From Okamejei kenojei (lineage: Eukaryota), in the NCBI GenBank assembly GCA_035221665.1, contig CM069164.1, positions 14,012,001-14,076,000 of the forward strand: 64,000 bases of DNA, written 5' to 3'. How positions within the stretch are numbered: position 1 is the stretch's first letter; each line of letters begins with the position of its first letter. Below are positions 640 through 58,214 of this stretch, one piece after another. The position numbers and the translations under genes were made by a program. Under the pieces are notes generated by a model that did no database searches, was not told the origin of the DNA, and was given only the letters and a program-made list of their open reading frames with translations.

Positions 640-980
640 GACACAATACAGAAAGAGGCCATTTGGCCCACAGGGTCGGTGCCAGCCACCAACCACCCAT
701 TTACACGCATCCTACACCAACCCTATTTTCTATTCCACCCACATTTTCATCAAACCCTTCCATTTTCCACCTCTCTCCTGCAACTAGGGGCAACTTACAG
801 CAGTCAGTTAACCTCTGAACAGGTACATCTTTGGAATGTGTGAGGAAGCTGGATCACCCTGAGGAAACCCGCATGCTCACAGGGAGAACGTGCAAACTCC
901 ACAGAGACAGTGACCCAGGTCAGGATTAAATCTGGGTCCCTGGTGCTGTGAGGCAGCAGCTCCATCCGCCGGCAGCACCG
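640..980 (-). mobile_element. Diverged HE1-like SINE
   Basis: Reverse complement matches the SINE head and core (GGGAGAACGTGCAAACTCCACA, GCTGTGAGGCAGCA). Confidence 0.7.
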
Positions 981-1005
981 TCCCGTCCCGTCCCGTCCCG
1001 TCCCG
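978..1005. repeat. (TCCCG)n microsatellite
   Basis: Five perfect TCCCG units at 981-1005. Confidence 0.9.
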
Positions 1006-1287
1006 GAGTTAATTAGTTGCCAGAATTTAAATTCCTCAGCTGCCAGGATGGGATGTGAACCGTTCAGGCCTTGAGATTATTACCCCAGTCGCCCACCCTC
1101 TCGGGCAAAGGGCTCGCAACTTCGGATGCATCTTGAAATGTGAAGAGAGCTTGGGCAAGGGGGGCTGACGAGAGGAGGATCAGTTCCCAAACCTCATGTG
1201 TAATGCACACCATGAATACAAAATGGAATATGCTGCCTTTCGGAGCCTGTGAAGTGAGCAGGAATGATGACAGAATAAATTACACCA

Positions 1288-1579
1288 GTATCACATTAGG
1301 CAAGAAATGTTTTAACAGCTCAGGCATGGCTCTTAAAATAATTGCACGGGATCCCAAACAAGATTATATCATGCTGTTCAAATGCTGTTCCGTGCTGTAT
1401 TATGAATTTTCACAATGAAATGTCAACACTGTCAGCCCAGAGCAAGGTTTTATTGAAACAATTCTGCTTGTATAATTACGTGGGGTAGCACGTGGTCCTC
1501 AGTTGTAGAGGATTATGCAGATAGTGCTCCACTTTAGTCAAACAGTGCTAATGCAGCTGTGCGCCAGATATTAAGCACA
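1288..1579 (+). repeat. Left arm of a 292-bp inverted repeat (probable donor copy)
   Basis: Reverse complement of 2532-2823 with 9 mismatches and no indels by manual alignment. Confidence 0.97.
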
Positions 1580-1784
1580 GCAACCAACAAAAACACAATT
1601 AATCAGATAATTAAGAAGAGATGAAAATAAATTTGAACTGATTAGAAGCACAAGGAAAATACCAGCTTCCAAACACACCTTCTAAGCCCACTGACGGGTT
1701 CAATGAGTTATGGTCATTCAGTGTGGAAATAGGCCCTTCGGCTCAACTGGCCAATAATTACCAACATGCCCCATCTACACTAGT

Positions 1785-1892
1785 AGACAAACTCAGCTGG
1801 TGGGGCAGCATCTATGGAGCGAAGGAAATAGGCAACGTTTCGGGCCGAAACCCTTCTCCAGACTCAGCATCTGCAATTCCTTCTTGAACATT
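1785..1892 (-). mobile_element. Penelope-derived unit inserted into a CR1 3' UTR, with a 14-bp TSD
   Basis: CCATCTACACTAGT at 1771-1784 and 1893-1906; degenerate hammerhead on the minus strand at 1834-1861. Confidence 0.75.
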
Positions 1893-1980
1893 CCATCTAC
1901 ACTAGTCCCACCTGCCTGCATTTGGCCCATATCCCACGAAAACATATCCGATCCATGTCATTGTTCAAACGTATTACAAT

Positions 1981-2160
1981 AGACACAAAATGCCGGAGTA
2001 ACTCAGCGGGACAGGCAGCATCTCTGGAGAGAAGGAATGGGCGGTGTTTCAGGCATCACCCGTTGCTTTTCTCCAGAGATACTGTCCTGTCCCACTGAGT
2101 TATTCTAGCATTTTGTGTCTACCTTTGGCATAATCCAGCATCTGCAGGTCCTTCCTGCAC
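1981..2160. mobile_element. Fold-back Penelope-derived unit
   Basis: AGACACAAAATGCCGGAGTAACTCAG... is inverted-complementary to ...CTGAGTTATTCTAGCATTTTGTGTCT. Confidence 0.75.
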
Positions 2161-2325
2161 GATGTTCCTCAAGTTCCTGGTGGTTTCATTGCAAGACCGC
2201 TGACTTTGGTTCCACAGTACCTCAGTAACTTATAAAATTACTAGCAGCTACAAATAACAAAAGATTTTGAGTGGTATGGTTCCACTCACAGATTGTCAGA
2301 GAGTTATGTAGTAAAGCCAAGTGTT

Positions 2326-2387
2326 CCCATTCCCTCTCTCCAGAGATGCTGCCGGCCGGCTGAGTTACTCCAGATTTTTGTGTCCAA
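2326..2387 (+). mobile_element. Truncated Penelope-derived unit with a 9-bp TSD
   Basis: CCAAGTGTT at 2317-2325 and 2388-2396 flanks CCAGAGATGCTGCC..GCTGAGTTACTCCAG. Confidence 0.7.
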
Positions 2388-2499
2388 CCAAGTGTTGCCT
2401 ACCAGTTTCACCTTCAGTGCAATCTCTGTAAGTTGTTATTTGTTGCACGTGGAATCAAAAAGTTAAGTGTGAAGTTTGTTGGTTGGCCCTCCCTTACCA

Positions 2500-3088
2500 T
2501 GCTTAGGGAGTGCCGCACTGTCAGTGACACATGTGGTCAACATCTGGCGCACAGCTGCATTAGCACTGTTTGACTAAAGTGGAGCTCTATCTGCATAATC
2601 CTCTACAACTGAGGACCACGTGCTGCCCCACGTAATTATACAAGCAGAATTGTTTCAATAAAATCTCGCTCTGGGCTGACAGTGTTGACATTTCATTGTG
2701 AAAATTCATAATACAGCACGGAACAGCATTTGAACAGCATGATATAATCTTGTTTGGGATCCCGTGCAATTATTTTAAGAGCCATGCCTGAGCTGTTAAA
2801 ACATTTCTTACCTAATGCGATACGAGGCCCTGTCTACTCGCACAGGATATACAAGACAGTGTGGCACTATATTGAAGAGTTAAGGAGATTCGGAATTAAA
2901 ACACTGTCTGTGTTGATGTTAATGCCTGAGCAACATCATTAAACGTGGATTATTTGGTATTTATCAAGTTTGCAAGAGTTCGATGTTTCCAAATTACAAC
3001 TGTGATTAACATCCAAAATCCGCTGTTAACGATTTTTGGGATATCCTAAAAGGGATGTGAAAGGCACTATAGAAATGCAATTCTCTTT
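2500..3088 (+). mobile_element. Old Deu-domain SINE (SacSINE1/AmnSINE1-like), interrupted by the right inverted-repeat arm
   Basis: AGGGAGTGCCGCACTGTC lies before the arm; GAGGCCCTGTCT..TGGCACTAT.TTGAAGA..CAACATCA..GTGAAAGGCACTATAGAAATGCAA follows it, in the order I recall for the Deu domain and its L2-like tail. Confidence 0.65.
2532..2823 (-). repeat. Right arm of the 292-bp inverted repeat (probable derived copy)
   Basis: About 97% identical reverse complement of 1288-1579. Confidence 0.97.
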
Positions 3089-3204
3089 GCTAAAGCTGCA
3101 GCTGACGTTTCTCCCTCTCCTCTGAAAATCGTTCTTGACACTCGTTCCATCCTATCCCCTTGATTTTTGGAGCTTCTTGTGAGATCACTTGGCTAAGACC
3201 ATGA

Positions 3205-3437
3205 TCTCAGAGAGTTGTGGGTCTGTGGAATTCTCTGCCTCAGAGGGCAGCGGAGGCCGGTTCTCTGGATACTTTTAAGAGAGAGCTAGATAGGGCCGTT
3301 AACGATAGCGGAGTCAGGGGATATGGGGAGAAGGCAGGAACGGGGTACTGGTTGGGGATGTTCAGCCACGATCACATTGAATGGCGGTGCTGGCTCGAAG
3401 GGCCGAATGGCCTCCTCCTGCACCTATTGTCTATTGA
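3205..3437 (+). mobile_element. CR1 (HER1-like) LINE 3' end
   Basis: Translates as LWNSLPQRAAEAGSLDTFKRELDR, followed by the conserved 3' UTR and a CTATTGT repeat tail. Confidence 0.9.
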
Positions 3438-7062: not shown

Positions 7063-7855
7063 CTGACGTATGGTGCCAGCACAATAACCTGGCCCTCAAC
7101 ACCTGCAAAACCAGGGAACTGATTGTGGACTTTAGAAGGAGTAGGATGGGGACCCACAGTCCTGTTTATATCAACGGGTCGATGGTTGAAAGGTCAAGAG
7201 CTTCAAATCCCTGGGCGTGCACATCTGTGAAGATCTTTCCTGGTCCGAGAACACAGATGCAATTATTAAGAAAGCTCATCAGCGCCTCTACTTCCTGAGA
7301 AAATTACGGAGAGTCGGTCTGTCAAGGAGGACTCTCTCTAACTTCTACAGGTGCACAGTAGAGAGCTTGCTGACCGGTTGCATCGTGGCTTGGTTCGGCA
7401 ACTTGAGCGCCCTGGAGAGGAAAAGGCTACAAAAAGTAGTAAACACTGCCCAGTCCATCATCGGCTCTGACCTTCCTTCCATCGAGGGGATCTACCACAG
7501 TCGCTGCCGCAAAAAGGCTGGCAGCATCATCAAGGACCCACACCACCCTGGCCACTCACTCATCTCCCTGCTACCTTCGGGTAGAAGATACAGGAGCCTG
7601 AGGACTGCAACGACCCGGTTCAGGAATACACAGCCTCCCCACAGCCATCAGGCTATTAAACCTGGCTCGGACAAAACTCTGAACATTAATACCCCTCCAT
7701 CTGTTATTTGCACTTTATTAATTTATTAATCCATGTGTGTATTTACGTATATAATTGCAGTCAATGCCTACTATGTTCTGTTCTGCTATGCAACAAAATA
7801 ATTTCATTGTCCTGTCAGGGACACATGACAATAAACTCTTTTGACTTTGACCTTG
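7063..7855 (+). mobile_element. Rex1/Babar non-LTR retrotransposon, 5'-truncated (end of ORF plus 3' UTR)
   Basis: WCQHNNLALNTCKTRELIVDFRR, then KKAHQRLYFLRKLRR..FYRCTVESLLTGCIVAWFGN..IIKDPHHPGHSL; tail ACATGACAATAAA plus TTGAC-type repeats; frameshifted. Confidence 0.9.
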
Positions 7856-10429: not shown

Positions 10430-10570
10430 ATCACGCATTGGTCTGAGGTTTGGAGGTTCAGGTCCCCAGTCCAAAGTCCAACCGGACACCCAGCGCAGCA
10501 CTGAGGGGGAGCCACACTGCCAGAGAGACACCACGTTTCAGAAGAGATGATAAATTAGGCTGCATCTGTC
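10430..10570 (+). mobile_element. Degraded Deu-domain SINE fragment
   Basis: GCAGCACTGAGGGGGAGCCACACTG..TTTCAG..GAGATGATAAA..AGGC resembles the Deu-domain start, as at 2500. Confidence 0.45.
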
Positions 10571-10576
10571 CACCAA

Positions 10577-10662
10577 AGGTAGACACAAAATGCTGGAGTA
10601 ACTCAGGGAGCATCTCTGGAGAAAATGTATAGGTGACGTTTCAGGTCAAGATCCTTCTTCAG
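10577..10662 (-). mobile_element. Penelope-derived unit with intact hammerhead core residues
   Basis: Minus strand 10662-10635 reads CTGAAGA-AGGATCTTGACCT-GAAACGTC. Confidence 0.7.
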
Positions 10663-12459
10663 CCAAGCTGGCCATGGAAAAGTTCCAAAGGTTAACAGAC
10701 ATAGTCATGGCTCGATTGAATGGCACAGTAGACTTGATGGGCCGAATGGCCTATTCCTTATGGATTTCCTATAACTTATGAACTCATACAATCCTTTAAT
10801 AACAAAACAGGACTGCTGAGACCCTGACCAATAAATATTGAGATCTCTGCGTGTCCAGTTAAGAAATTTCAGCGACATAAATAAAGGATTTTAAAAAAAC
10901 CAACTATGCATCTTAAATGCTTCAGACATTAAGCACAATATCCTTCATACACCTTCATCAATAGCAAGTAGGTTTAACCCCCAACGCTGATATGAAATTG
11001 GTTACCACTTAACCACCACGAACAAGTCAGATATTAATAATCATTGTGTGCAGACAAAAAAAGTTATTAACTGCGGGTGCGATAGGTTAGCTATTCTATA
11101 TTAATAAGTCATCTGCTACAGAATAATTACAGGCAGTCCCTACTGTGGAAGCAATCAGACAGAGAGAACAAATAACTGACCCCAAAGCATGCCAGTGTCT
11201 GCACCATCCATCAGCTTCTAGAACGTTCTCACCACACCCACCAATTAGGTTGCCCTCCCCCAACCCACAAGGGCTCCTCTCTCCGACAGAGGGTCAAAGG
11301 CCATCGGTGTGTATGCGCGTGCTTCTGCGATCTCATTATCCCCTTGTCCATACATTTATCTGGCAGGATAAGAGGAAGGATGGTGACCGAGCTATCATCA
11401 AAGATTAATGGGAAGTATGAAAGAGAAATCAGAGTTAACATGCATTCTGCTTAGTACAAGTGACGGCACTGACAGCATTATTAATCAGCAGCCGAGCAGA
11501 TTTAAGCCTGTCCTCTCTGCTTCTGAGCATCTCTTTCCAATTTAAGTCTTTAGTTTCTCCTTACTATGGCAACTGGAGGTCAAAAAGCCAGTTACTAATT
11601 GGTTCTACAGGGTACTGAATGGTAATGAGAAGGGTCCAATTATAAAATCACTTGGCATTAGAAATGATTAGCATGTAAGGAAAGCTCGCAGGCCACGGCT
11701 GAGAAGCAGTGCAGATTGGCTGTTTATCACACTCTTACATTTTCCCCTGGTGTTAGCTATTAATAAAATTTATAGGTCAATGGCAGCATTAATTTTACAA
11801 GAAGGCAGCAGGTAACGCACCCAGTGCTCCCCAGACGACTCTACCTTGTTCAGTTTGCTGGTTAATATTATTTAAGTGCTCAACGGTCCTCTGGGATGGA
11901 TGAAGTGAATGGTTGCCCCAACAGAGGCACCTGACAGAAGAGGCGCCGTTGGTCTCTGCAGGGTCGGTGCCCAGTGTGTCTCCCTGGCCTCCGCTGTGGG
12001 TTTGAGTCCGCGGGCCACACAGCCTCAGTTGTGCTGCAGTGCGGACCGTCCTGCGCTGCTGGCTCGCAGCATGTTCCCTCAGCTCCCGTCTGCATCTTTA
12101 CCAAGGTAAAGCAGGGCTGCGGTACTTCTGGATCAGAAGGTGCCAGGGCGCAGTGCTCAGCTGTGGCAGGCTGGTCTCAGCTCAGAGCCAGGGGGGCTGT
12201 GGGGACCAGAGAGAGCAAAATAAGGCAACACAATGCTGGAGTCAGGCAGCATCTCTGGAGTCAAAGAATAGGTGAATACGTGACATTTCAGGTCAGAACC
12301 CTTCTTCCGACTGAAGATAGGCACAAATTGCTGGAGTAACTCTGTGAGTTAGGCACGCGCCAGCCCTTACACCGGCCTGACCGAGCGGGGACCTGGTGCA
12401 GTGGCATGGAGGTCAAAGCCAGGAGGCCAGGTCCAGCTGCACTGATTTATTCACTGTAT

Positions 12460-13057: not shown

Positions 13058-14671
13058 CAGTGCCAGATTTAGATACCCTAGGCTATTCCACTTGTGAGGC
13101 CCCTCCCAATCCCCCACCCCCACAACGACGGGACGATGGAAGAGTCCACCAGATTGACACCGATGTGCAGCCGAGCGTGGCCAATGGAATAAGGGCTGGA
13201 AAGCTGCGCTTTTTATTTATTGCCAGTGCTAGTGTCGAGTTATCAGCTTAAAACACTATTATTCTGAAATGGGGGGCAAGGAAATTTACTGAAGTGTTGT
13301 TTAGAGACTACAGTGTGTTGTGACAGCATATGTAAGAAAGGCCTATGACAGTGTCAAAAATATTATAGATCAGGCCCGTAGGAAGCTTTGCAAAAAGGGG
13401 GGTGGCATGGCAGGCTTACAAAATTTTATGTGAAAATAGTGCCCGCTTAAGGGCCTTGGAAGCTCTGGGGTTTTAGATGTTCTCTGGTGCATTCTGAGCC
13501 TTATTTTGGAGCATTTTTGCACCAAATTTATGACCAATATTTCAGAAATAATTTTGGTTGAGTCAAGAGTAATGAGTGGTTGGAATGGGATGATTGGGCT
13601 CATTGTTGTATACATATTCTTAAATCAATTGAAGCTGTCCTTGTTTCAATAATCAAGTTGTACTGTAAAATGTTATGTAAAATGTTATAAAGGAACATGC
13701 AAATAAAATACTGTAAGTTTTTGCAGTACATAAAACCTTTTTTTTAGAAAATGTTTTGTGTGTTGATTTGATTGCCTGTTACTGTTCGACTGTGTTAGTG
13801 TGTGCACATTAAAAATATGATGAAAATTAAAGTCGCAAACTATGGAATTCATATTTTTCAGTATTGTTATCAAAGAAAAGAAAGCAGTTCCAATTGTTTG
13901 ATATTATTCATATGGAGGAGAAAATATAATTGCTCTAAAACCTATCTTAATTTTGCGATCTCACTAAAGATAATCCCCCTTTCCCTCTCCTCCTTCCCCC
14001 TCCCTCTCCCTCCACCTCTCTCCCCCTCTCTCTCCCCCCTCCCCTCTCTCTCCCCCCCCCCCTTCCCCTCTCTCTCTCTCTCTCCCTCCCTCCCTCTCTC
14101 TACCCTCTCTGTCTCAACCCCCCCTTCCCCCCTCTCACATCCACCCCCCTCTCTCCCTCCCACCCACCGAGGCTCCAACTCTGCGCTGCAGACACCGCAG
14201 CCCTGGCCCGGAGAAACGGGCACTCCCGCAACACAATATTCCACTACTTACCTGGAGTAGACACGAGGCACCGAGGTGATTGTGTGGAGAACAAATGGAG
14301 ATCTGAGCCCGCCCGGGCCCACTGCGCACACACGGAGAGACAGCGTCATCTTGTGTCGCTACTGCGTCACCGGCTTCCCCCAACTGCGCAGGCGCGGACG
14401 GTCGCAATTTTTTCCCCAAAACCTCCAGCGGCCGGAACCAGAATTTCGGGTAATTTCCGTCAAAGTGGAAACGCTGATGGCGCTCCAATTTTTTTTTTCT
14501 CTGGATTGTTTTTGTTCTGGGAAAAAACACCTTGGCCGGAGGCCCCCTAGATTTTGAGGCCCGAGGCTTCAACCTATGAGGCCTGTAGGTAAAACCGTCC
14601 CTGCCGAGGCCCCCCTAGATCTCGAGGCCCTAAGCTTAAGCTTGTGAAGTTTATACGTAAATCCGGTCCTG
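13058..14671 (-). mobile_element. Non-autonomous hAT element of the same family as 22896-25408, in the opposite orientation
   Basis: TIRs CAGTGCCAGATTTA / TAAATCCGGTCCTG; perfect 8-bp TSD GTGTGTAT (13050-13057, 14672-14679); both subtermini match the 22896-25408 element. Confidence 0.9.
13975..14165. repeat. Polypyrimidine (CT-rich) tract
   Basis: Almost exclusively C and T. Confidence 0.9.
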
Positions 14672-14740
14672 GTGTGTATGAGTGTGAGTTTGAGAGCGAG
14701 AGGGAGTGCAAGTCTGTGAGTGTGTGAGAGAGTGTTTAGT

Positions 14741-22860: not shown

Positions 22861-23029
22861 CATGAAGTGCTGAACAAGATAGCATGGGCTAGTACCAGGG
22901 CCGGATTTACGTATAAGCTAGACAAGCTTAAGCTTAGGGCTTCGAGATCTAGGGGGACCTCCGCCCGCTCCACCAAGGAGTATAAAACCTTTGATATATT
23001 GGCGTTGTTGCAAAACCTACCATCGGTGG

Positions 23030-23590
23030 GCTGTTTCCACGCTGCAGACCCCCACTCCCCTGAGTTTGACTGCGCTGGGTCCTAGTGCCAGTCCCCCCAA
23101 CCCTGGTAACCTCTGTGGCTGTTCCCATGGGTCTTCCCCATTCCCCTCAAACCATGTGACCCCAGCTCTTCCCCACCCACACTACAGTCCTCATACCCCC
23201 CTACCCCTTGACCACCCACCACCCCCCCACCAGACATCGCCTCGGCCTCATTCCACTTACCTGACTTCCTCCGGACCCAACCCCCATCCCTGCCGTGTGT
23301 TCACCATCCTCCCTGACCTCCCCCTCTCAGATACCGAACGGGCTGTACACAGCATGGGCCTCAGCTTTGTCTCCTCCGTCCCCACCTCAATGAGTTCCAC
23401 GCCCGCCGCGATTTGGAGCTCTTCTTCCGTCGCCTCCGCCTCACACCGTTCTTCCAAGGGACGGAGTCCTTGCTCCCATTGATGATCCCTTTTCCAACGG
23501 GCCCCCTCCTCTTGGACACCCCCTCATGGCCATCTTCCAGCTTTAGACCATTTTATTTTAAACTGCCGGCGGGACATCAACTGCCTCAAC
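23030..23590 (+). pseudogene. Penelope-like element ORF fragment (N-terminal, upstream of RT) nested in the hAT
   Basis: RVFTILPDLPLSDTERAVHSMGLSFV, ELFFRRLRL and WTPP..LPALDHFILNCRRDI across frameshifts; resembles the PLE LS..E..VL.KGL.F.P motif. Confidence 0.7.
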
Positions 23591-23880
23591 AGTATATAAT
23601 ACCATGTAATTCTGTGTTCAGGGAAGTGGAGAGAGGACTGCCAAGTGTCTGTGTTGCTCACTTGGCTGGGGTTTGTTTTCCTTGTCACTTCCATCAGCCG
23701 ATAATTAGTAAAGTTTTGAATTGGTCTACCAAACTGCTTTGTGAGTTATCTGTTTATTAAGAAGTGAACCTGTTTGCTTAGTTATAAATTCACCTTTTTC
23801 AAGCAGATTTGATTCAGATTTGAATCAGATTTTGCAATATAATTGTCAATAAGGACCAATTTTTAAGAAATAGTTCCCAA

Positions 23881-24860
23881 CGGGAGGCACATGCGAAAGC
23901 CACAGAAGCTATTTTGGAAAGTTACAGCGCTATCACTGATGCCCTCAGTCATTTGTACTCTGGTGTTAATGTGAAGGGTGATACCAGGCTTCAAGCTAAC
24001 AATCTTTAGCAGAAAATGGAAGAAGTGGAATTTGTATTTATGCTGCATTTTTGGACCCGTCTGCTAGGTCATTTCCACAGGGTCAACAAAGCCATTCAGA
24101 AATCCAAACTGTTATTGAGCACGTGTGCAGGTTTGTACAGTTCACTTCGGGATTTTGTAAGCAAAATTAAAGATTTTGATGAGCTTGAGCCACAAGCAAA
24201 GGCCACCTTGCCAGATGTTAACTACAGAACTGTCTCAGGGAGACAAGGAATAAGGAAATGATGGAAGTGCACCTGGTCCTGATACTTTAGATAAACTCTC
24301 TTCAAGAGATAAGTTTAGGATAAAATCCTTTATTCCTATACGAGATGCACTTGAAACCAATTTAAAAAGAAGAGGTACTGTGTACAGTGAAGTTGCACAA
24401 CAGCTGTCCTTTCTTGCTAATCTGACCACATCTAAGCAAGAAACTCAGCAAGGTGTTGAACTGTTGATGGAAGCACACCCAGAAGATGCTGATCTGGAAC
24501 TTACTGATGAACTTTTGCACTTTCACTCGTACGTGAGACAAAGCCATAGGCACACAGAAGAGCACTCTCTGCCTCATACAGACCTTTATCAAATAATATA
24601 CAAGGAAACAATTCTGATGGCCTTCCCTAATGTGGAAGCAATCTTGCGGCTGTTTCTTAGCTTAATGGACACCAACTGCTCGGGAGAGAAGTCTTTTTCA
24701 CGACTCAAAAGAATTAAAAATGAATTAAGATCCACAATGTCTCAAGAGAGGTTGTCTACACTGAGCATTCTGTGCATTGAGAGTGACAAACTCACACAAA
24801 CAGATCTTGGTGAACTTCTGGATGATTTTGCTATGAAGAAGGCGAGAAAAAGCATTTTTG
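23881..24860 (+). pseudogene. hAT transposase C-terminal half (ZMYM1-like), disrupted
   Basis: EAHAKATEAILESY..EFVFMLHFW..; FPNVEAILRLFLSL..NCSGEKSFSRLKRIKNELRSTMSQERLSTLSILCIE (hAT dimerisation domain with the catalytic Glu motif); in-frame TAG at ~24007 and a frameshift at ~24258. Confidence 0.9.
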
Positions 24861-25659
24861 CTCTTAGTGTATTTGTAGTTTCTTTATTTCTTAATATTCC
24901 ACATTCAGTTCAAGAGACACTTATTGTCACGTGCACCAATTGGTGCAACTAAATTTGGGGTCAGCATCTGGCGTCGGAACGGGAGAACATTCTCAGCGGC
25001 TTGGACTTCCGAATCGGCCACTTCCTACCGGAGACTGCGGCTCCCGAAGTCCACAGGCTGAGCTGGGCGGAGATTCACGCTGGCGGCCCTCGGCAAAGGG
25101 ATGTTGAAATCAGCGCGGCCCGAGGCTGGGAGCTCCGCAAACCACAGCTCCATGTTGAAGCAGCAGGCCCAGCTCTCCAGAGCTTCACACGGCGATCCAG
25201 GTAAGGCATCGCCCGCTCCACGGTGAATCCAATATGTGTTTTAAAACCAACTGTTTAATGACGACATACAGTAGGATCTAAAAGTGTCACACTGTCACTG
25301 TCGGGTAGTCACGGTCCTCTAGTCGTGGGGGTGTGGGATTGGGAGGGGTGGGGAGGGGCCTCACAAGTGAAATAGCCTAGGGCCTCTCTTCATCTAATTC
25401 CAGCCCTGGCTAGTACAGTAATTCTGTAGATGTTGCTGCTACTGGGCTCCATTGGTGGAGGGAGCGAGTGTTCCAATCAAGAAGACTACTTTGCTCCAAA
25501 TAGTTTTGAGCTACCTGAGTGGCACGCAGCTACCCAAGGGACGACTTCAGACTCTTAGATCATTGGGATCTCTTGCAGGACATGTGGGACCTCCACGAGC
25601 AGGATAGGTTGTGCCTGATCTGGAGAGGCAGCAATATCTTTACAGGAAGGTTTGCTAGT

Positions 25660-29990: not shown

Positions 29991-31219
29991 GTACGAAAGA
30001 CATGGATAGTATAGGATAGATAGTCAGAGAATCGTTTTCCCACAGCAGTGGAGTCTAGAACTAGAAGGCACGGTTAAGGTGAGAGGGGAGAAATTTAAAG
30101 GATATCTGTGGGGTATTAATATATATTTTTTAAATTATGTTCATGGATGGTGCCCAAGTTTGCTAATCTAAGGCTAATTTAGTTTAGTTTAGTTTAGTTG
30201 AGAGATACAGTTTGGAAATAGGCCTTTCGGCCCATCGAGTCTATGCTGACTCTCGATCACCCATTCACATGAGTTCTATGTTATCCCACTTTTGCATCCA
30301 CTTGCTACGCACTAGGGACAATTTACAGAGGCCAATTAACCTACAAACCTACACATCGTGGGGGTGTGGGAGAAACCGCAGCACCCAGAGTAAGCCCAAG
30401 GGGTCACATGGAGAACACGCAAACTCCACACAAACAGCACTCAAGGTCAGGATGGAGCCCGGGACTCTGGCACTCGGGCAGCAGCTCCACCAGCTGTGCA
30501 ACTGTGTCGCTAATGACAAGCTATTAAGCATTCACTCATTAACCAACATCCACTGGACACACTGAGTGGATGGTAGGACTTATAGCTGACCCCCATGTAT
30601 ACTAAAGCTGCTTTGAACCTCTCCTGAATTAAACTACACACAGAGGTTGGCGACTGTCTGGAACGAGCTGTCAGAGGAGGTGGTGGAGGCAGATACAAGT
30701 GCAGTGTTTAAAATAAGTACTTGCTTAGGAAAGGTGTTGATGGATACAGGGCTAATTCAGGCAAATGGGATTAGCATGGATAGGCGTGGTGGTTGGCGTG
30801 GAGAAGGTGGGACAAGTGAGCTTGTTGCTGTGCTGCACCATTCAATAATCTTCCCTTCTTTCTCATAGAAACATAGAAATTAAGTGCAGGAGGAGGCCAT
30901 TCGGCCCTTCGAGCCAGCACCGCCATTCATTGCGATCATGGCTGATCGCCCCCAATCAATAACCCGTGCCTGCCTTCTCCCCATATCCCTCGGTTCCACT
31001 AGCCCCTAGAGCTCTATCTAACTCTTGGGGCTAGATTCCCCCAGATACCAGCTCTCACCTGTCTCTAGGGACCATTTTCAAAAGCCAATTATCCACGTCT
31101 TTGAGATGTGGGGAGAAGCCAAAGCTCCAGGAGGGAATTCCCTCATCTAGGTTGGTAGCATCCATTGCAACACATGGGAGTGTGATGCACTAAAGGTGCT
31201 GCCTCTTAGATAAAATAAC

Positions 31220-32254: not shown

Positions 32255-32565
32255 GAATAGACAATAGGTGCAGGAGGAGGCCATTCGGCCCTTCGAGCCA
32301 GCACCAACCACCATTCAATGTGATCATGGCTGATCATCCCCAATCAGTACCCCGTTCCTGCCTTCTCCCCATATCCCCTGACTCCGCTATTTTTAAGAGC
32401 CCTATCTAGCTCTCTCTTGAAAGCATCCAGAGAACCGGCCTCCACCGCCCTCTGAGGCAGAGAATTCCACAGACTAACCACTCTCTGTGAGAAAAAGTGT
32501 TTCCTCGTCTCCGTTCTAAATGACTTACTCCTTATTCTTAAACTGTGACCCCTGGTTCTGGATGT
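32255..32565 (-). mobile_element. CR1 (HER1-like) LINE 3' end
   Basis: SRTRGHSLRIRSKSFRTETRKHFFSQRVVSLWNSLPQRAVEAGSLDAFKRELDR. Confidence 0.9.
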
Positions 32566-33074
32566 CCGATTAACTTTCTGCAACTTTGATGGGTCCAGAC
32601 CCGTGGCGGCTCCTTGTGTACTGCCTAGGGGAGGGAGGGAGGGAGGGAGGGCGGGAGGGCGGGCTGCTGTATCATTTCACCAGATAGTAAGCAAAAGCAA
32701 CCAACGTCACTGTCCCTAGATACATGTGGCAATAAAGTGTCATTGAATTGAATAAATGAAGGAATTGCTGAGGGAAAACAGCAAGAAATGATAATTATGT
32801 AAAGGCACATTCTACATTTGTAACTGTGAATAGCAGCTTGTGAAGCCTGAATAAGTCCAATCCAAATTTAAACTGGGTTTCCTTTCAATGCTTGACTGGA
32901 AATAAATGGCCAAGCATGTTTATACGACGCTGCAGTTCGATGTCATCGTACCTTGGTTGTTTAATTCAGGAGAGGTTCACGGCAGGTTTTGTGTACAAGT
33001 GGTGGTCAGCTGTGAGCCCTCCCATCCAGGGTGGGTCCAGGGGTCGCTGATAACGGCTTTACAGCCTATCATTA

Positions 33075-33375
33075 GCGGCACGCTGGCGCAGCGTCAGCGA
33101 CCCGGCTTCGATCCTGACCTCGGCTGCTGTCTGTGTAGAGTTTGCACGTTCTCCCTGTGCCCACGTGGATTTCCTCCGGGTGCCCTGGGTCTCCTCCCAG
33201 GTCCCACGTTTCCTCCCGGGTTCGAAGGGTTAACGGGCCTTCCGTAGACTGGTATGTAGGGAGTGGATGCAAAAGTGGGAAAAGCATGGAACTACTATGA
33301 ACGGGTGATCGAGTGTCAGCTTGGACACAATGGGCTGAAGGGCCTGTTTCCAAGCTGTATCTCTAAACGAAACTA
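33075..33375 (+). mobile_element. HE1-like SINE
   Basis: Head with TTCGATCC, core and tail GAAGGGCCTGTTTCC..CTCTAAAC. Confidence 0.75.
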
Positions 33376-33914
33376 TGCTAAATTAGCCTTAGTTCAGCAG
33401 ACTTGGGCGCCATCCATAAATGAATTTGTTTTTAAGTACAAGTATGGCACACCACAAACTGAAACAGCATCCTGAGTAATACAGAAATGTGGAAGCTAAA
33501 CCGTCAGCTGTGGTTTCAACCAGCTGTCCTGGTTAACCTAAGTCTGACTTCAGATTTGTTTTAAATGCCTGCAGCCCCTCCTTTGTGGTGTTGGTGCGTT
33601 GCTCATCTCAGTATAGCTTGTGCGTCAGAACGAGCAAGGGAGCCGAGGTCCTGCCTCCAGAGGAAGATGGCTGCAATCGGCGGCGAGCCAGACTGAGTCG
33701 ACCTGTTTGTGAAACCATGGACCTGGGCTCCTGCAAGGCTCAGGGTCTCATTCCATCCACAGTGGTCTTCACACCCAACTAGGTTTCACACACCCCACCC
33801 ACGTCAGCCTCGATTCATCCAAATTTCCCCACACTTACCCTCTCCTCACTTAGATCCCACGTCTATCCCGCCTATCCTTGCTTAACTGCCCTTTTTCTGG
33901 TTCCAAATCACTAT

Positions 33915-34165
33915 CGAGGAAACACTTTTTCTCACAGAGAGTGGTGAGTTTGTGGAATTCTCTGTCTCAGAGGGCGGTGGAGGCAGGTTCTCTGGATGCT
34001 TTCAAGAGAGAGCTAGATAGGGCTCTTAAAGAAAGTGGAGTCAGGGGATCTGGGGAGAAGGCAGGAACGGGGCACTGATTGGGGATGATCAGCCATGATC
34101 ACATTGAATGGCGGTGCTGGCTCGAAGGGCCGAATGGCCTCCTCCTGCACCTATTGTCTATTGTC
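33915..34165 (+). mobile_element. CR1 (HER1-like) LINE 3' end
   Basis: RKHFFSQRVVSLWNSLSQRAVEAG followed by a CTATTGT repeat tail. Confidence 0.9.
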
Positions 34166-34220: not shown

Positions 34221-34248
34221 CTGAAGAGGGATCTCGACCCGAAACGTC
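34221..34248 (+). ncRNA. Minimal type I hammerhead ribozyme motif within a Penelope-derived unit (34182-34305)
   Basis: CUGAAGA, GGG/CCC stem II, GAAA, palindromic ACGU in place of stem III, and a GUC cleavage triplet; stem I GAGU/ACUU can pair. Confidence 0.7.
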
Positions 34249-34651: not shown

Positions 34652-34893
34652 NNNNNNNNNNNNNNNNNNNNNNNNNNNNNNNNNNNNNNNNNNNNNNNNN
34701 NNNNNNNNNNNNNNNNNNNNNNNNNNNNNNNNNNNNNNNNNNNNNNNNNNNNNNNNNNNNNNNNNNNNNNNNNNNNNNNNNNNNNNNNNNNNNNNNNNNN
34801 NNNNNNNNNNNNNNNNNNNNNNNNNNNNNNNNNNNNNNNNNNNNNNNNNNNNNNNNNNNNNNNNNNNNNNNNNNNNNNNNNNNNNNNNNNNNN
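34652..34893. other. Assembly gap
   Basis: Run of N. Confidence 1.
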
Positions 34894-35002: not shown

Positions 35003-35220
35003 NNNNNNNNNNNNNNNNNNNNNNNNNNNNNNNNNNNNNNNNNNNNNNNNNNNNNNNNNNNNNNNNNNNNNNNNNNNNNNNNNNNNNNNNNNNNNNNNNN
35101 NNNNNNNNNNNNNNNNNNNNNNNNNNNNNNNNNNNNNNNNNNNNNNNNNNNNNNNNNNNNNNNNNNNNNNNNNNNNNNNNNNNNNNNNNNNNNNNNNNNN
35201 NNNNNNNNNNNNNNNNNNNN
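35003..35220. other. Assembly gap within a GA-rich repeat
   Basis: Run of N flanked by GA-rich sequence. Confidence 1.
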
Positions 35221-38845: not shown

Positions 38846-39721
38846 AGACAGTTCGGGATCTGCGGAGCCGTCACTAAACCTCCCTGTTACACCGTCGAAT
38901 CCTCGGGTATTATAATTGGAGCAACACCGACAACAGGATAAGATGAATACTGAGTGCAAAATGAGGCTTGCAAACAGATGGTTGCACCCGCATCGCAAGC
39001 TATTAGTGTGGAAGATGCTGCCAGTGTTGCTAATTCATGAAAATTTATGGCTGCAAAAATCTGTCAGTTTATGGCAGGTTTCTTTCCCCCAACCCGAGTC
39101 TCAGACAAACCACAAAGGGAGTTTTTTTTTTCTTTCTTTCTTTCTGACAGCAGACCAAGTGCTGAGAACACAGTTTCACTTCCCCCAAACTAGCCACTGA
39201 CTATCTTATCGCACCCACTGAAGCCAGTCATCAGACCCGACCCCTCCTCTCCCTCTCCGCTATCTCTACCCTACTCTCGTCCTGACCTCTGCTAATCTCT
39301 CAAACAGCCTGCTGCGACAAGCTGATATGAAATTTCTTCACAGGCCTTAAGCAATTTGTCCGGGCTTGTGTCAACTTTACTTCATTTTAAATCATCGGCT
39401 GACTCACTAACAAGCTCGTTGGCCTTGAGGTTGATTTAGAAACATTCTTTCTCTTCCCACTGCCCAGCCCAAGTTCAATTACTCACCACCTTCACTCATT
39501 CTTACAAGCACAATAAAGCAATTTTGTTGCTGTCCTACAAACTGGTCAGGACTCTACATTTTTCATTATTTCAAAAATAAACTTTCTTCAGAATTTTTTT
39601 TTTAAATATATATATATGTGTGTGTGTGGAAAAAGTTACCCCTCTATTAAATCTATATGAACCATATTCTTTATTTCAAAAATAAACTTATTCTTCCGAA
39701 TAAAAAACATATATACCTGCA

Positions 39722-39853
39722 NNNNNNNNNNNNNNNNNNNNNNNNNNNNNNNNNNNNNNNNNNNNNNNNNNNNNNNNNNNNNNNNNNNNNNNNNNNNNNN
39801 NNNNNNNNNNNNNNNNNNNNNNNNNNNNNNNNNNNNNNNNNNNNNNNNNNNNN
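39722..39853. other. Assembly gap
   Basis: Run of N. Confidence 1.
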
Positions 39854-39998
39854 TGTGTGCATGTATATATATTTTTTATTCTGAAGTCTATTTTGAAATA
39901 ATGAAAATGTAGAGTTCATATAGATTTAATAGGAACCAGAGGGGTAACTTTTTCCAGACAGGATGGTGGGTGTATGGAACGAGCTGCCGGTGAAGGTA

Positions 39999-41668: not shown

Positions 41669-41916
41669 ACCTCTTCGACTCTCTCTGCTAGGGAGAATCA
41701 GCTTTTTGCCAAACGTTTGGCAACATGCACCATACTCAAAACGTTAAACACTTTCCCGCAATGCCACTTCGAGGGGAGGAACATCCTGGAGATGGCTGGC
41801 TGCTGAATCAACAAAATTGAAAGTCAGACAAAAACACCAAGTGCTGGAGTAACTCAGCGGGCCAGGCAGCATCTCTGGAGAACATGGATAGGTTGAAGTA
41901 TGAAGAAGGGTCTCGA

Positions 41917-42370
41917 TGCCTCTACTTCCCGAGAAGATTACGGAGATTCGGGACTTCGAGATTCCCTTCAACTTCTACAGGTGCACAGTAGAGAGAACAT
42001 TGACTGGTCGATTCATGGCCTGGCTCGGCAACGTGAACGCCCAGGAGAGGAAAAGACTGCAAAACGTTGAGAACGCTGCCCAGTCCATCGCCGGCTCTGA
42101 CCTCCCCACCATCGAAGGGATTTATCGGAGTTGCTGCCTCAAAAAGGCAGCCAGCATCATCAGAGACCCACACCATCCTGGCCGCACACTCATTTCACCC
42201 CTGCCATCGGGAAGAAGGTACAGGTACAGGAGCGTGTGCGTGTGTGTGGTACATTCACTTTTTTTCTCTCTCGTTTATCATATTGTTTACAGTGAACCAT
42301 GTTTAAATATTCTGTTGTGCTGCAGCAAGTAACAATGTCATTGTTCTATCTGGGACACATGACAATAAAA
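41917..42370 (+). mobile_element. Rex1/Babar 3' fragment inside a Penelope-derived unit
   Basis: NFYRCTVERTLTG..AWLGN..ERKRLQ..IIRDPHHPG..LPSGRRY; tail ACATGACAATAAA. Confidence 0.88.
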
Positions 42371-56690: not shown

Positions 56691-57495
56691 AGCTGGTGGA
56701 AAGAAGCTATTCTTGAACCCGCTGGTCAACGTTGTCAGGCTCAGGCACCTTCTCCCTGACGGTAGGGGTGAAACAAGAGGGTGGCCAGGGAGGTGTGAGC
56801 ACTGAGGCAGCCACTACTCCATATCCCTTCAATGCGAGGAGATCAGTAGCTGCGATGGAATTAGCTTGGGGTTTAACGGTCAGCTTTCCTCTCTGGTCCA
56901 GAACCAGCTGCGACCTCACTGAGTGGTGCAACAGGGTTGAAAGGCCTCCCCTCTATCCACGTCACTAAAAGTCTATTAAAATACATGCACTGACAATTTT
57001 GCGGCTGTGTCCTGGTTCCTTGTCAGTGAATTCCCGTTGCAAATCTCTTTCTCTCCCTTCAGGGAGCACAGCCCTGAAACATGATATTGTGTCTATAATA
57101 CATCTCCACCTCCTCGCTAAAGCTGCTGAGTCCTTAGCTTGTTACCAGTATTACAAACATCGGATGTCACGTCACATTAGCAGCTTCCACCCTGACAACT
57201 CGGAGAGAAATGTCAGCGCGTCTCAGCACCTTTGGATGTACCGGCAGAGACGCCGTCTGTTGCTGGTGCATCAAATACCATCACCGCCTGCAGCCCGCCC
57301 TGCTGCTTTCAAGCTGGTAAATAATGTATCAAAGCCAGTGTAGCCTTCAACACTCACTTGTCAGCCCGCCCCCAGGAGGGCCAGGTTGAGATGCCGAATT
57401 AAAATAGACATCTCCTCACACCATCGGAGAAGGAGAAATCTTTCAGAAGCAAATCCAAACTCGTCGCAATTCACTGACAGGAAAAACACTTGCAA

Positions 57496-57527
<32 letters not shown>

Positions 57528-58214
57528 AGAGAAAGCCAGATTTAACTGCTTTGGGCAACAAACTAATTTACAGCAGGAATTGAATATTTGCTCTCTCCCC
57601 CCCCCCCCCTTAGGAAATTGCAACGGGAAACGTAATTATTTTTTTCTATGCAGGCAGGGTGAATTAGAGGCACACGATGGAGCCCACACCAGGAGGTTGC
57701 TGCTTCCAACATCTGCTGCTTCCCTGTACAAGGCAGATTTTCCAATGCCCCAAGATCATCAGATAACTGACCACCTGGGATTGAGGTGACCACTCAGGTA
57801 AATCAATTTTGAAAGATCAGGGAACTGCAAATTAGGGCACAGCAGATGGGGCGAGGCCTGGGGTAGGTCACCCCATGACCATATTAAATGTCAGGACAGG
57901 TTTGAGGGGCCGAGTGGCCTACTCTCGATGGTCAGTGGCTCCGCGGAAGGAAGGAAGGAAGAGTCTACAGGTTGTTAGATTCAGCGATCATACATGAGCA
58001 CTATCCTACACAATCAGGACAATTTACACATTTTTAACCAAAGCCAATTAATCTACAAACCTGTACGTCTTTAGAGCGTGGGAGGAAACCCAGAAAAAAC
58101 CCAGGTCACAGAGAGAACATAGAAACTCCGTACAGACAGCACCCATAGTCAGGATCACACCCGGGTGTATGGGAGGCTTTATTTTTTTATTATTATTTAT
58201 TTTTTAATATAAAG

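Follow-up and report, generated by a model that had tools for sequence, protein, structure and literature searches.

An inverted repeat with arms at 1288-1579 and 2532-2823 lies in the window analysed here (the whole stretch of DNA, 64 kb in length). Each arm is 292 bp long, and the two differ at 9 positions, with no gaps, across a 952-bp spacer. Self-BLAST returned this pair as the best non-self match within the 64-kb window (E=1.6e-137), with exactly the coordinates, arm length, mismatch count, lack of indels and spacer length that had been given in a first-pass annotation of the locus. The annotation had also described the arms as matching no other repeat in the window, and self-BLAST found no third copy there, the next-best arm match having E=0.13. 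Some 30% of the window matches other parts of it, and among its 15 two-copy segments the arm pair alone exceeds 91% identity.

Transitions account for 7 of the 9 arm mismatches. Three of the nine, at 1570, 1573 and 1575, fall in the innermost 10 bp of the left arm; at least three mismatches in either terminal 10 bp would occur with P=0.004 under random placement. Because of this cluster, the arms were trimmed to a clean pair, 1288-1569 and 2542-2823 (6 mismatches in 282 bp); we count 2532-2541, whose origin is uncertain, as part of the junction. Both CpG-to-CpA differences (1293 and 1444) are carried by the left arm. The features of the locus are collected in Table 1.

Table 1. Coordinates of the inverted repeat, its junctions and the SINE sequences around it.
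Feature	Position	Strand	Remarks
Left arm, likely donor	1288..1569	+	282 bp of non-repeat DNA, about 40% GC
Donor continuation	1570..1579	+	Matches right junction segment at 7/10 bases
Spacer	1580..2531	.	952 bp; unique DNA and several short interspersed-repeat fragments, with the SINE 5' part at its end
Possible guide stem	1581..1591	.	Identical over 11 bp to the reverse complement of 2475-2485; patchy to about 50 bp
5' remnant of Deu-domain SINE	2501..2531	+	Adjoins right arm; may reach back to about 2431
Inner junction segment of insertion	2532..2541	-	Putative error-prone copy of 1570-1579, or filler
Right arm, likely inserted inverted copy	2542..2823	-	Appears to replace about 24-26 bp of SINE
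3' part of Deu-domain SINE	2824..3095	+	Deu match restarts at first base beyond arm
Second, uninterrupted Deu-SINE copy	10500..10562	+	Empty-site proxy, outside the inverted-repeat structure

The right arm appears to split a single Deu-domain SINE from which 24-26 bp were lost, a reading that is well supported but indirect. Two SINE-side motifs reported earlier sit at 2505-2522 and from 2824 onward. On the inner side, 2501-2530 agrees with 10500-10529 at 22/30 positions without gaps, which is the best match in the window and was equalled by 2/300 shuffled queries; the match extends to 2531 (23/31) and then drops. On the outer side, comparison by eye with the Deu block printed in the supplement of PMC7245038 gave 14/19 identities at 2824-2842, counted from the 30th base of the block, and 18/28 at 2853-2880. 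The first 29 columns of the same block agree by eye with 10528-10556 in the second SINE copy at 16/29 positions, and 9 of the 13 differences are transitions. Gapped alignments against the in-window copy were weaker: that of 2431-2531 was equalled by 10/500 shuffles (8/500 for a negative-control region), and that of the right flank, equalled by 156/500, was not significant. The Deu central domain is present in the host element, judged by its by-eye identity to the published block. The 3' end of the element at 3095 was set from the tail structure that we assume for a SINE, and SacSINE1 is presumably the name of the family.

In searches for further copies and for the SINE consensus, nhmmer with single copies as queries detected no other Deu copy in the window below E=0.2, literature text searches gave no match to the two short SINE motifs, and the available supplementary material of PMC4824008 and PMC5804259 contained no matching SINE sequence. 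Deu-domain SINEs of SacSINE1 type are reported from sharks and the little skate in the available text of PMC5499810, where copies in the little skate are described as old, at about 74% identity to their consensus. The host element resembles such DeuSINEs (PMC4824008, PMC5499810 and PMC7245038, as far as their available parts describe them) in matching the published Deu-domain block, in a family whose copies are old, and differs from them in being interrupted by an insertion.

Since the right copy sits inside the SINE, in place of about 24-26 bp, the left arm is likely the donor and the right arm the copy at the recipient site; this polarity is read from the diverged in-window SINE copy and from the by-eye match to the published consensus block. 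A local templated inverted insertion, with the left arm as donor and a Deu-SINE as host that had lost roughly 25 bp, was also what the first-pass annotation had proposed, and both the estimate of 24-26 bp and the SINE homology, which ends at 2531 and restarts at 2824, agree with it. The two SINE halves are collinear across the spacer, which therefore shows no net inversion. Inversion of the spacer between the arms was considered and rejected, given this collinearity and a perfect identity of only 142 bp, short against the roughly 200-300 bp above which recombination becomes efficient.

The junctions carry few marks of homology. No direct microhomology was found between the flanks at both ends and no long homology at the breakpoints, and the outer junction shares at most one base by eye with the published Deu block, where the lost 24-26 bp would hide any more. 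Three overlapping short palindromes lie at 2516-2535, centred on the right inner junction; as many were found in 37/2071 background segments in what was a post hoc test, and two of the three could arise from one substitution in SINE sequence. Comparable palindromes were not found at the other three arm ends. The mismatch cluster and the palindromes give the right inner junction the look of a repair scar. A stem formed by the inverted match of 1581-1591 with 2475-2485 might have tethered the donor to the recipient, which we regard as a weak lead: 17/1000 shuffles gave a match as high, the comparison was made post hoc, the stem is 45 bp out of register, and its A-rich stretch also scored as a false positive when used as a control.

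The differences between the arms carry the imprint of germline mutation. Transitions make up 5 of the 6 in the clean arm (p=0.018), and the arms disagree at 2/14 CpG positions against 4/268 elsewhere (p=0.03), with both lost CpGs in the left copy. The clean-arm divergence is 2.2% (95% range 0.8-4.6%), corresponding to about 10 My (4-22) at 1.05e-3 substitutions per site per My and to 67 My (24-145) at 1.6e-4, where both rates are as quoted in the available text of PMC5499810 and the dating assumes no conversion between the arms. We saw no sign of such conversion between the arms, the longest identical run being 142 bp (P=0.10). The transition- and CpG-biased pattern speaks for a genuine event, some 10-70 My ago, as against an artefact.

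An artefact of assembly, in which a chimeric read or the pair of alleles at a single segment had been joined in inverted orientation, would have to arise in an assembly that does contain gaps (three N runs in the window), and allelic differences are likewise transition- and CpG-biased. However, the closest gap is about 32 kb off, and six differences in 282 bp would be found between alleles with P=3e-5 at a diversity of 0.002 (that of the epaulette shark, another species, in the available text of PMC10587355), with P=0.003 at 0.005 and with P=0.07 at 0.01. Read chimeras would be identical or show indel-type errors, not CpG transitions, and two clean junctions with a 25-bp deletion within a SINE are not the usual mis-join, all of which makes an artefact highly improbable. 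We also consider it very unlikely that the arms are mobile DNA, either as the long TIRs of one 1.5-kb fold-back transposon or as two insertions of a low-copy 290-bp element, although an element present a few thousand times in the genome could have no other copy in a 64-kb window, the arm length falls in the range of long-TIR Tc1-type elements, and the end bases of the left copy look Helitron-like by eye on the minus strand. The SINE spans from within the spacer to beyond the right arm: it breaks off at 2531 and continues at 2824, so that the 1.5-kb block does not form a transposon complete in itself. No TSD surrounds the whole block or either arm; the first-pass annotation had likewise noted the lack of an outer TSD, and no direct repeat could be placed at both outer ends. 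Terminal self-complementarity reaches at best 8/14, with no terminal inverted repeat inside an arm beyond that best terminal 14-mer; the right copy is without the Helitron-like 3' end, no G+C-rich subterminal hairpin was seen by eye, and a target deletion is atypical of cut-and-paste insertion. Among specific candidates, a fold-back or long-TIR transposon at 1288-2823 was rejected for its missing TSD and for not being self-contained (the 64-kb window holds no dispersed copies), and a MITE, SINE or Helitron as a single arm for the missing TIR and TSD, with Helitron-like ends in the left copy alone and no hairpin. ARAGORN, which is insensitive to decayed heads, found no tRNA gene.

A further route to an inverted copy would be RNA: a reverse transcriptase of LINE or Penelope type would have copied a nearby transcript at a break within the SINE. 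LINE and SINE fragments are abundant in the window, and target deletion without a TSD is known from endonuclease-independent insertions. Against this, neither arm ends in poly(A), a simple-repeat tail or retroelement sequence, and landing less than 1 kb from the source would be left unexplained. Insertion from RNA is hardly to be expected here, even with 17 complex deletions with probable RNA templates described in humans in the available text of PMC4617611.

We consider it likely that the locus is a real, probably neutral local inverted duplication, produced by a single copy-and-paste accident in the germline and belonging to a known class of mutation. According to the available text of PMC4617611, 54% of sequenced human inversions are inverted duplications, nearly all of them shorter than 1 kb and within 5 kb of their source, and such duplications are not typically tied to retrotransposition. 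A further 277 human events of this class, with a median of 284 bp and mostly 1-15 bp of microhomology, are described in the available part of PMC12350158, which suggests a replicative origin. The locus resembles the duplications described in these two sources in being inverted, in its size (282-292 bp, below 1 kb), in its distance from the source (a 952-bp spacer, below 5 kb) and in its lack of retrotransposition marks, being without TSD and without tail; its 282 bp may be set beside the median of 284 bp in PMC12350158. At the outer junction at most one base of microhomology can be read by eye, with the lost 24-26 bp hiding any more, where the human events mostly have 1-15 bp. The duplication differs from them in that it is known from one assembly and is already 2% diverged, whereas the human events are polymorphisms with a known empty allele.

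The repeat, its ends, its missing TSD and TIR and its mutation spectrum are there to be read directly, and its class suggests template switching (of fork-stalling/MMBIR type) as the mechanism by which it would have formed. Synthesis crossing an old Deu-domain SINE in the rightward direction would have stalled or broken at about 2531 and switched to an opposite-sense template about 950 bp behind, at 1579 or 1569; opposite-sense copying would have run back to 1288, and synthesis would have rejoined about 25 bp downstream of its departure point, at what is now 2824. The switch points would thus follow the order 3-2-1-4; with a fork moving in the other direction, the mirrored order would apply. 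The ten inner junction bases would represent error-prone or filler synthesis, and the copies would since have diverged by about 2% through ordinary mutation. Fork-stalling template switching and templated break repair of polymerase-theta type cannot be told apart here. In the available text of PMC7954356, the four-point order 3-2-1-4 is a majority pattern that gives one inverted repeat. At our locus point 3 is 1288, point 2 is 1579 or 1569, point 1 is 2531 and point 4 lies about 25 bp further, and the likeness to the short-range template switches of PMC7954356 extends to the single inverted repeat and to a small loss between points 1 and 4. Unlike those switches, whose tracts have a median of 12 and a maximum of 128 nt in the same available text, the 282-bp tract and the jump of about 1 kb exceed the reported range.

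Of the earlier interpretation, the local templated inverted insertion thus stands, and its hints of an enhancer and of a transcribed strand, taken up below, do not; it passed over the membership of the locus in a well-described class of structural variant. The locus is one clean case, outside mammals, of a known mutation class, and the split SINE lets the direction of copying be read. Related species could be scored for its presence or absence as a dated marker, and many such loci could be used to gauge the rates of template switching and of conversion between arms in slow-mutating cartilaginous fish. Its importance is small and would grow only with evidence, from RNA or from conservation, that either the stem or the duplicated donor is in use.

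A duplication of the same origin could also be functional, as a duplicated enhancer or as a transcript duplex of about 290 bp that serves as a substrate for ADAR or Dicer or affects splicing; we think this distinctly unlikely. The predicted fold of either strand contains 284-288 in-register arm pairs at about -530 kcal/mol, in keeping with the dsRNA of about 290 bp that had been anticipated if the locus is transcribed, and no other closely spaced inverted pair in the window is as perfect as the arms, which have no indels. For an intragenic inverted duplication in humans, a hairpin in the pre-mRNA has been put forward as the cause of exon skipping (available text of PMC8756506). However, duplex potential is routine in the window, because 17 other inverted pairs of at least 80 bp lie no more than 3 kb apart and 2 of the 4 that were folded are similar in energy (-500 to -570 kcal/mol). 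The G-U pairs, which had been taken as a hint of strand, number 5 in a minus-strand and 2 in a plus-strand transcript, as had been counted along with the seven transitions, but the bias is not significant (p=0.45), and in the clean arm the counts are 3 and 2. The four motifs behind the enhancer hint give 7 hits, a score reached by 1/101 non-repeat windows, but they had been picked from the arm itself. A 30-motif panel drawn up independently of the arm gave 9 hits against a mean of 7.4, and 36/101 windows scored as high. With no motif excess in this fixed panel, and with a donor that has lost 2 CpGs, the enhancer reading is unsupported.

The gene content of the window points the same way. We detected 482 ORFs of at least 55 aa, of which 351 are mostly non-repeat, and scanned 300 of the latter with Pfam. 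No host gene was recognised among these 300/351, the only clear matches above the Pfam cut-off being a hAT dimerisation domain and an ALKBH8_N domain inside a repeat, and one further match lies at its cut-off (E=0.005). A crude exon scan yielded 4 candidates only, none of them recognisable (no Pfam match in the 3 scanned), although short exons can escape ORF and exon scans; the window may lie within a long intron of a host gene. Rfam gave no match at gathering level and 10 weak matches in 900-3300, none within the arms. The neutrality of the duplication is thus probable, as judged from negative tests within the 64 kb.

Two reading frames at the arms were rejected as coding. The 93-codon ORF at 1137-1415, which enters the left arm, had no candidate among proteins of 51-163 aa and no Pfam match; a full-library search returned one hit, P0002 (E=5.6e-9), a protein of 5817 aa matched in 13 stretches, the best of 18 aa, which we read as weak matches summed over a repetitive protein. 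A 48-aa ORF within the arm had a sub-threshold Pfam match (E=0.034, 15 bits against a cut-off of 27) that was taken as chance.

There remains a slim chance that the locus is a retained regulator, located in a long intron or a non-coding transcript, whose near-perfect 282-bp stem of unique sequence is edited, diced or steers splicing, with a minus-strand donor site at 2812/2811 in the right arm. If so, a single replication slip would have given a cartilaginous fish a regulator of hairpin-RNA type that stayed free of indels for 10-70 My. The intragenic inverted duplication in CHM (PMC8756506, available text) is alike in having an inverted copy near its source, a few bases replaced and a predicted long hairpin, and the hairpin-RNA loci that yield endo-siRNAs in Drosophila, as far as described in the available sources, are alike in possessing a long inverted repeat able to pair. 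The CHM duplication, however, is larger (1,752 bp), includes an exon and affects splicing, and the Drosophila loci are transcribed, diced and have targets, whereas no exon was recognised at the 282 bp described here. Among the matches listed in a literature search, no report of a hairpin-RNA locus named a skate or chondrichthyan, which is no proof of absence.

A possible cryptic exon was noted on the minus strand at 3045-2812: the antisense SINE tail offers a site resembling an acceptor, and downstream of it the right arm has a canonical GT donor at 2812/2811, where the left arm has GC (1301). The site scores of this exon, obtained with a home-made frequency matrix, are ordinary, with 16 donor sites in the window scoring higher, and stops occur in all three frames, and the exon was rejected.

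Several other inverted structures were observed in the window. LINE 3'-end fragments at 32256-32507 and 33915-34162 form an inverted pair with 94% identity across 252 bp and 1.4 kb between its members, for which a duplex of about -500 kcal/mol is predicted; they share no flanks and are probably independent insertions of one young subfamily. The first of these fragments is bracketed by an inverted SINE-like pair at 30140-30637 and 32956-33420 whose members are 71% identical in an alignment of 508 columns and separated by 2.3 kb, and for which a duplex of about -570 kcal/mol is predicted. LINE-tail motifs in the window are similar by eye to elephant-shark CR1 tails shown in the supplementary material of PMC7245038; with the SacSINE1-type SINEs reported from sharks and the little skate, this makes a cartilaginous fish the likely source of the DNA. 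Three N gaps of irregular size, at 34652-34893, 35003-35220 and 39722-39853, adjoin GA- or TG-rich tracts, and the last is flanked by a 76% inverted pair at 39623-39721 and 39858-39960.

An abundant short repeat, often arranged head-to-head, occurs at 10638-10662 (-) and 34221-34245 (+), with related repeats such as those at 135-224 and 1979-2162. Its motif resembles what we take to be a minimal hammerhead core of Penelope type; a search of the window for the exact hammerhead-like pattern gave 2 hits against 0.42 expected, which was not significant (7/100 shuffles). The pair of short repeats in the spacer has weak miRNA-like Rfam matches far under the cut-off.

A hAT relic at 22894-25382 contains the dimerisation-domain match mentioned above (E=1.5e-6, ORF 24254-24949), and sequence like its two ends recurs, oppositely oriented, at 14603-14673 and 13076-13124, which suggests that 13076-14673 may be a shorter, non-autonomous relative. 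The ALKBH8_N match (E=1.4e-13) is in an ORF at 7190-7726, inside a repeat that recurs at 41896-42224; this ORF is likely a LINE fragment and not a host exon, given the association of ALKBH8_N with LINEs. Two long non-repeat blocks, at 57130-57800 and 11430-11850, were picked out by eye as candidate conserved non-coding elements.
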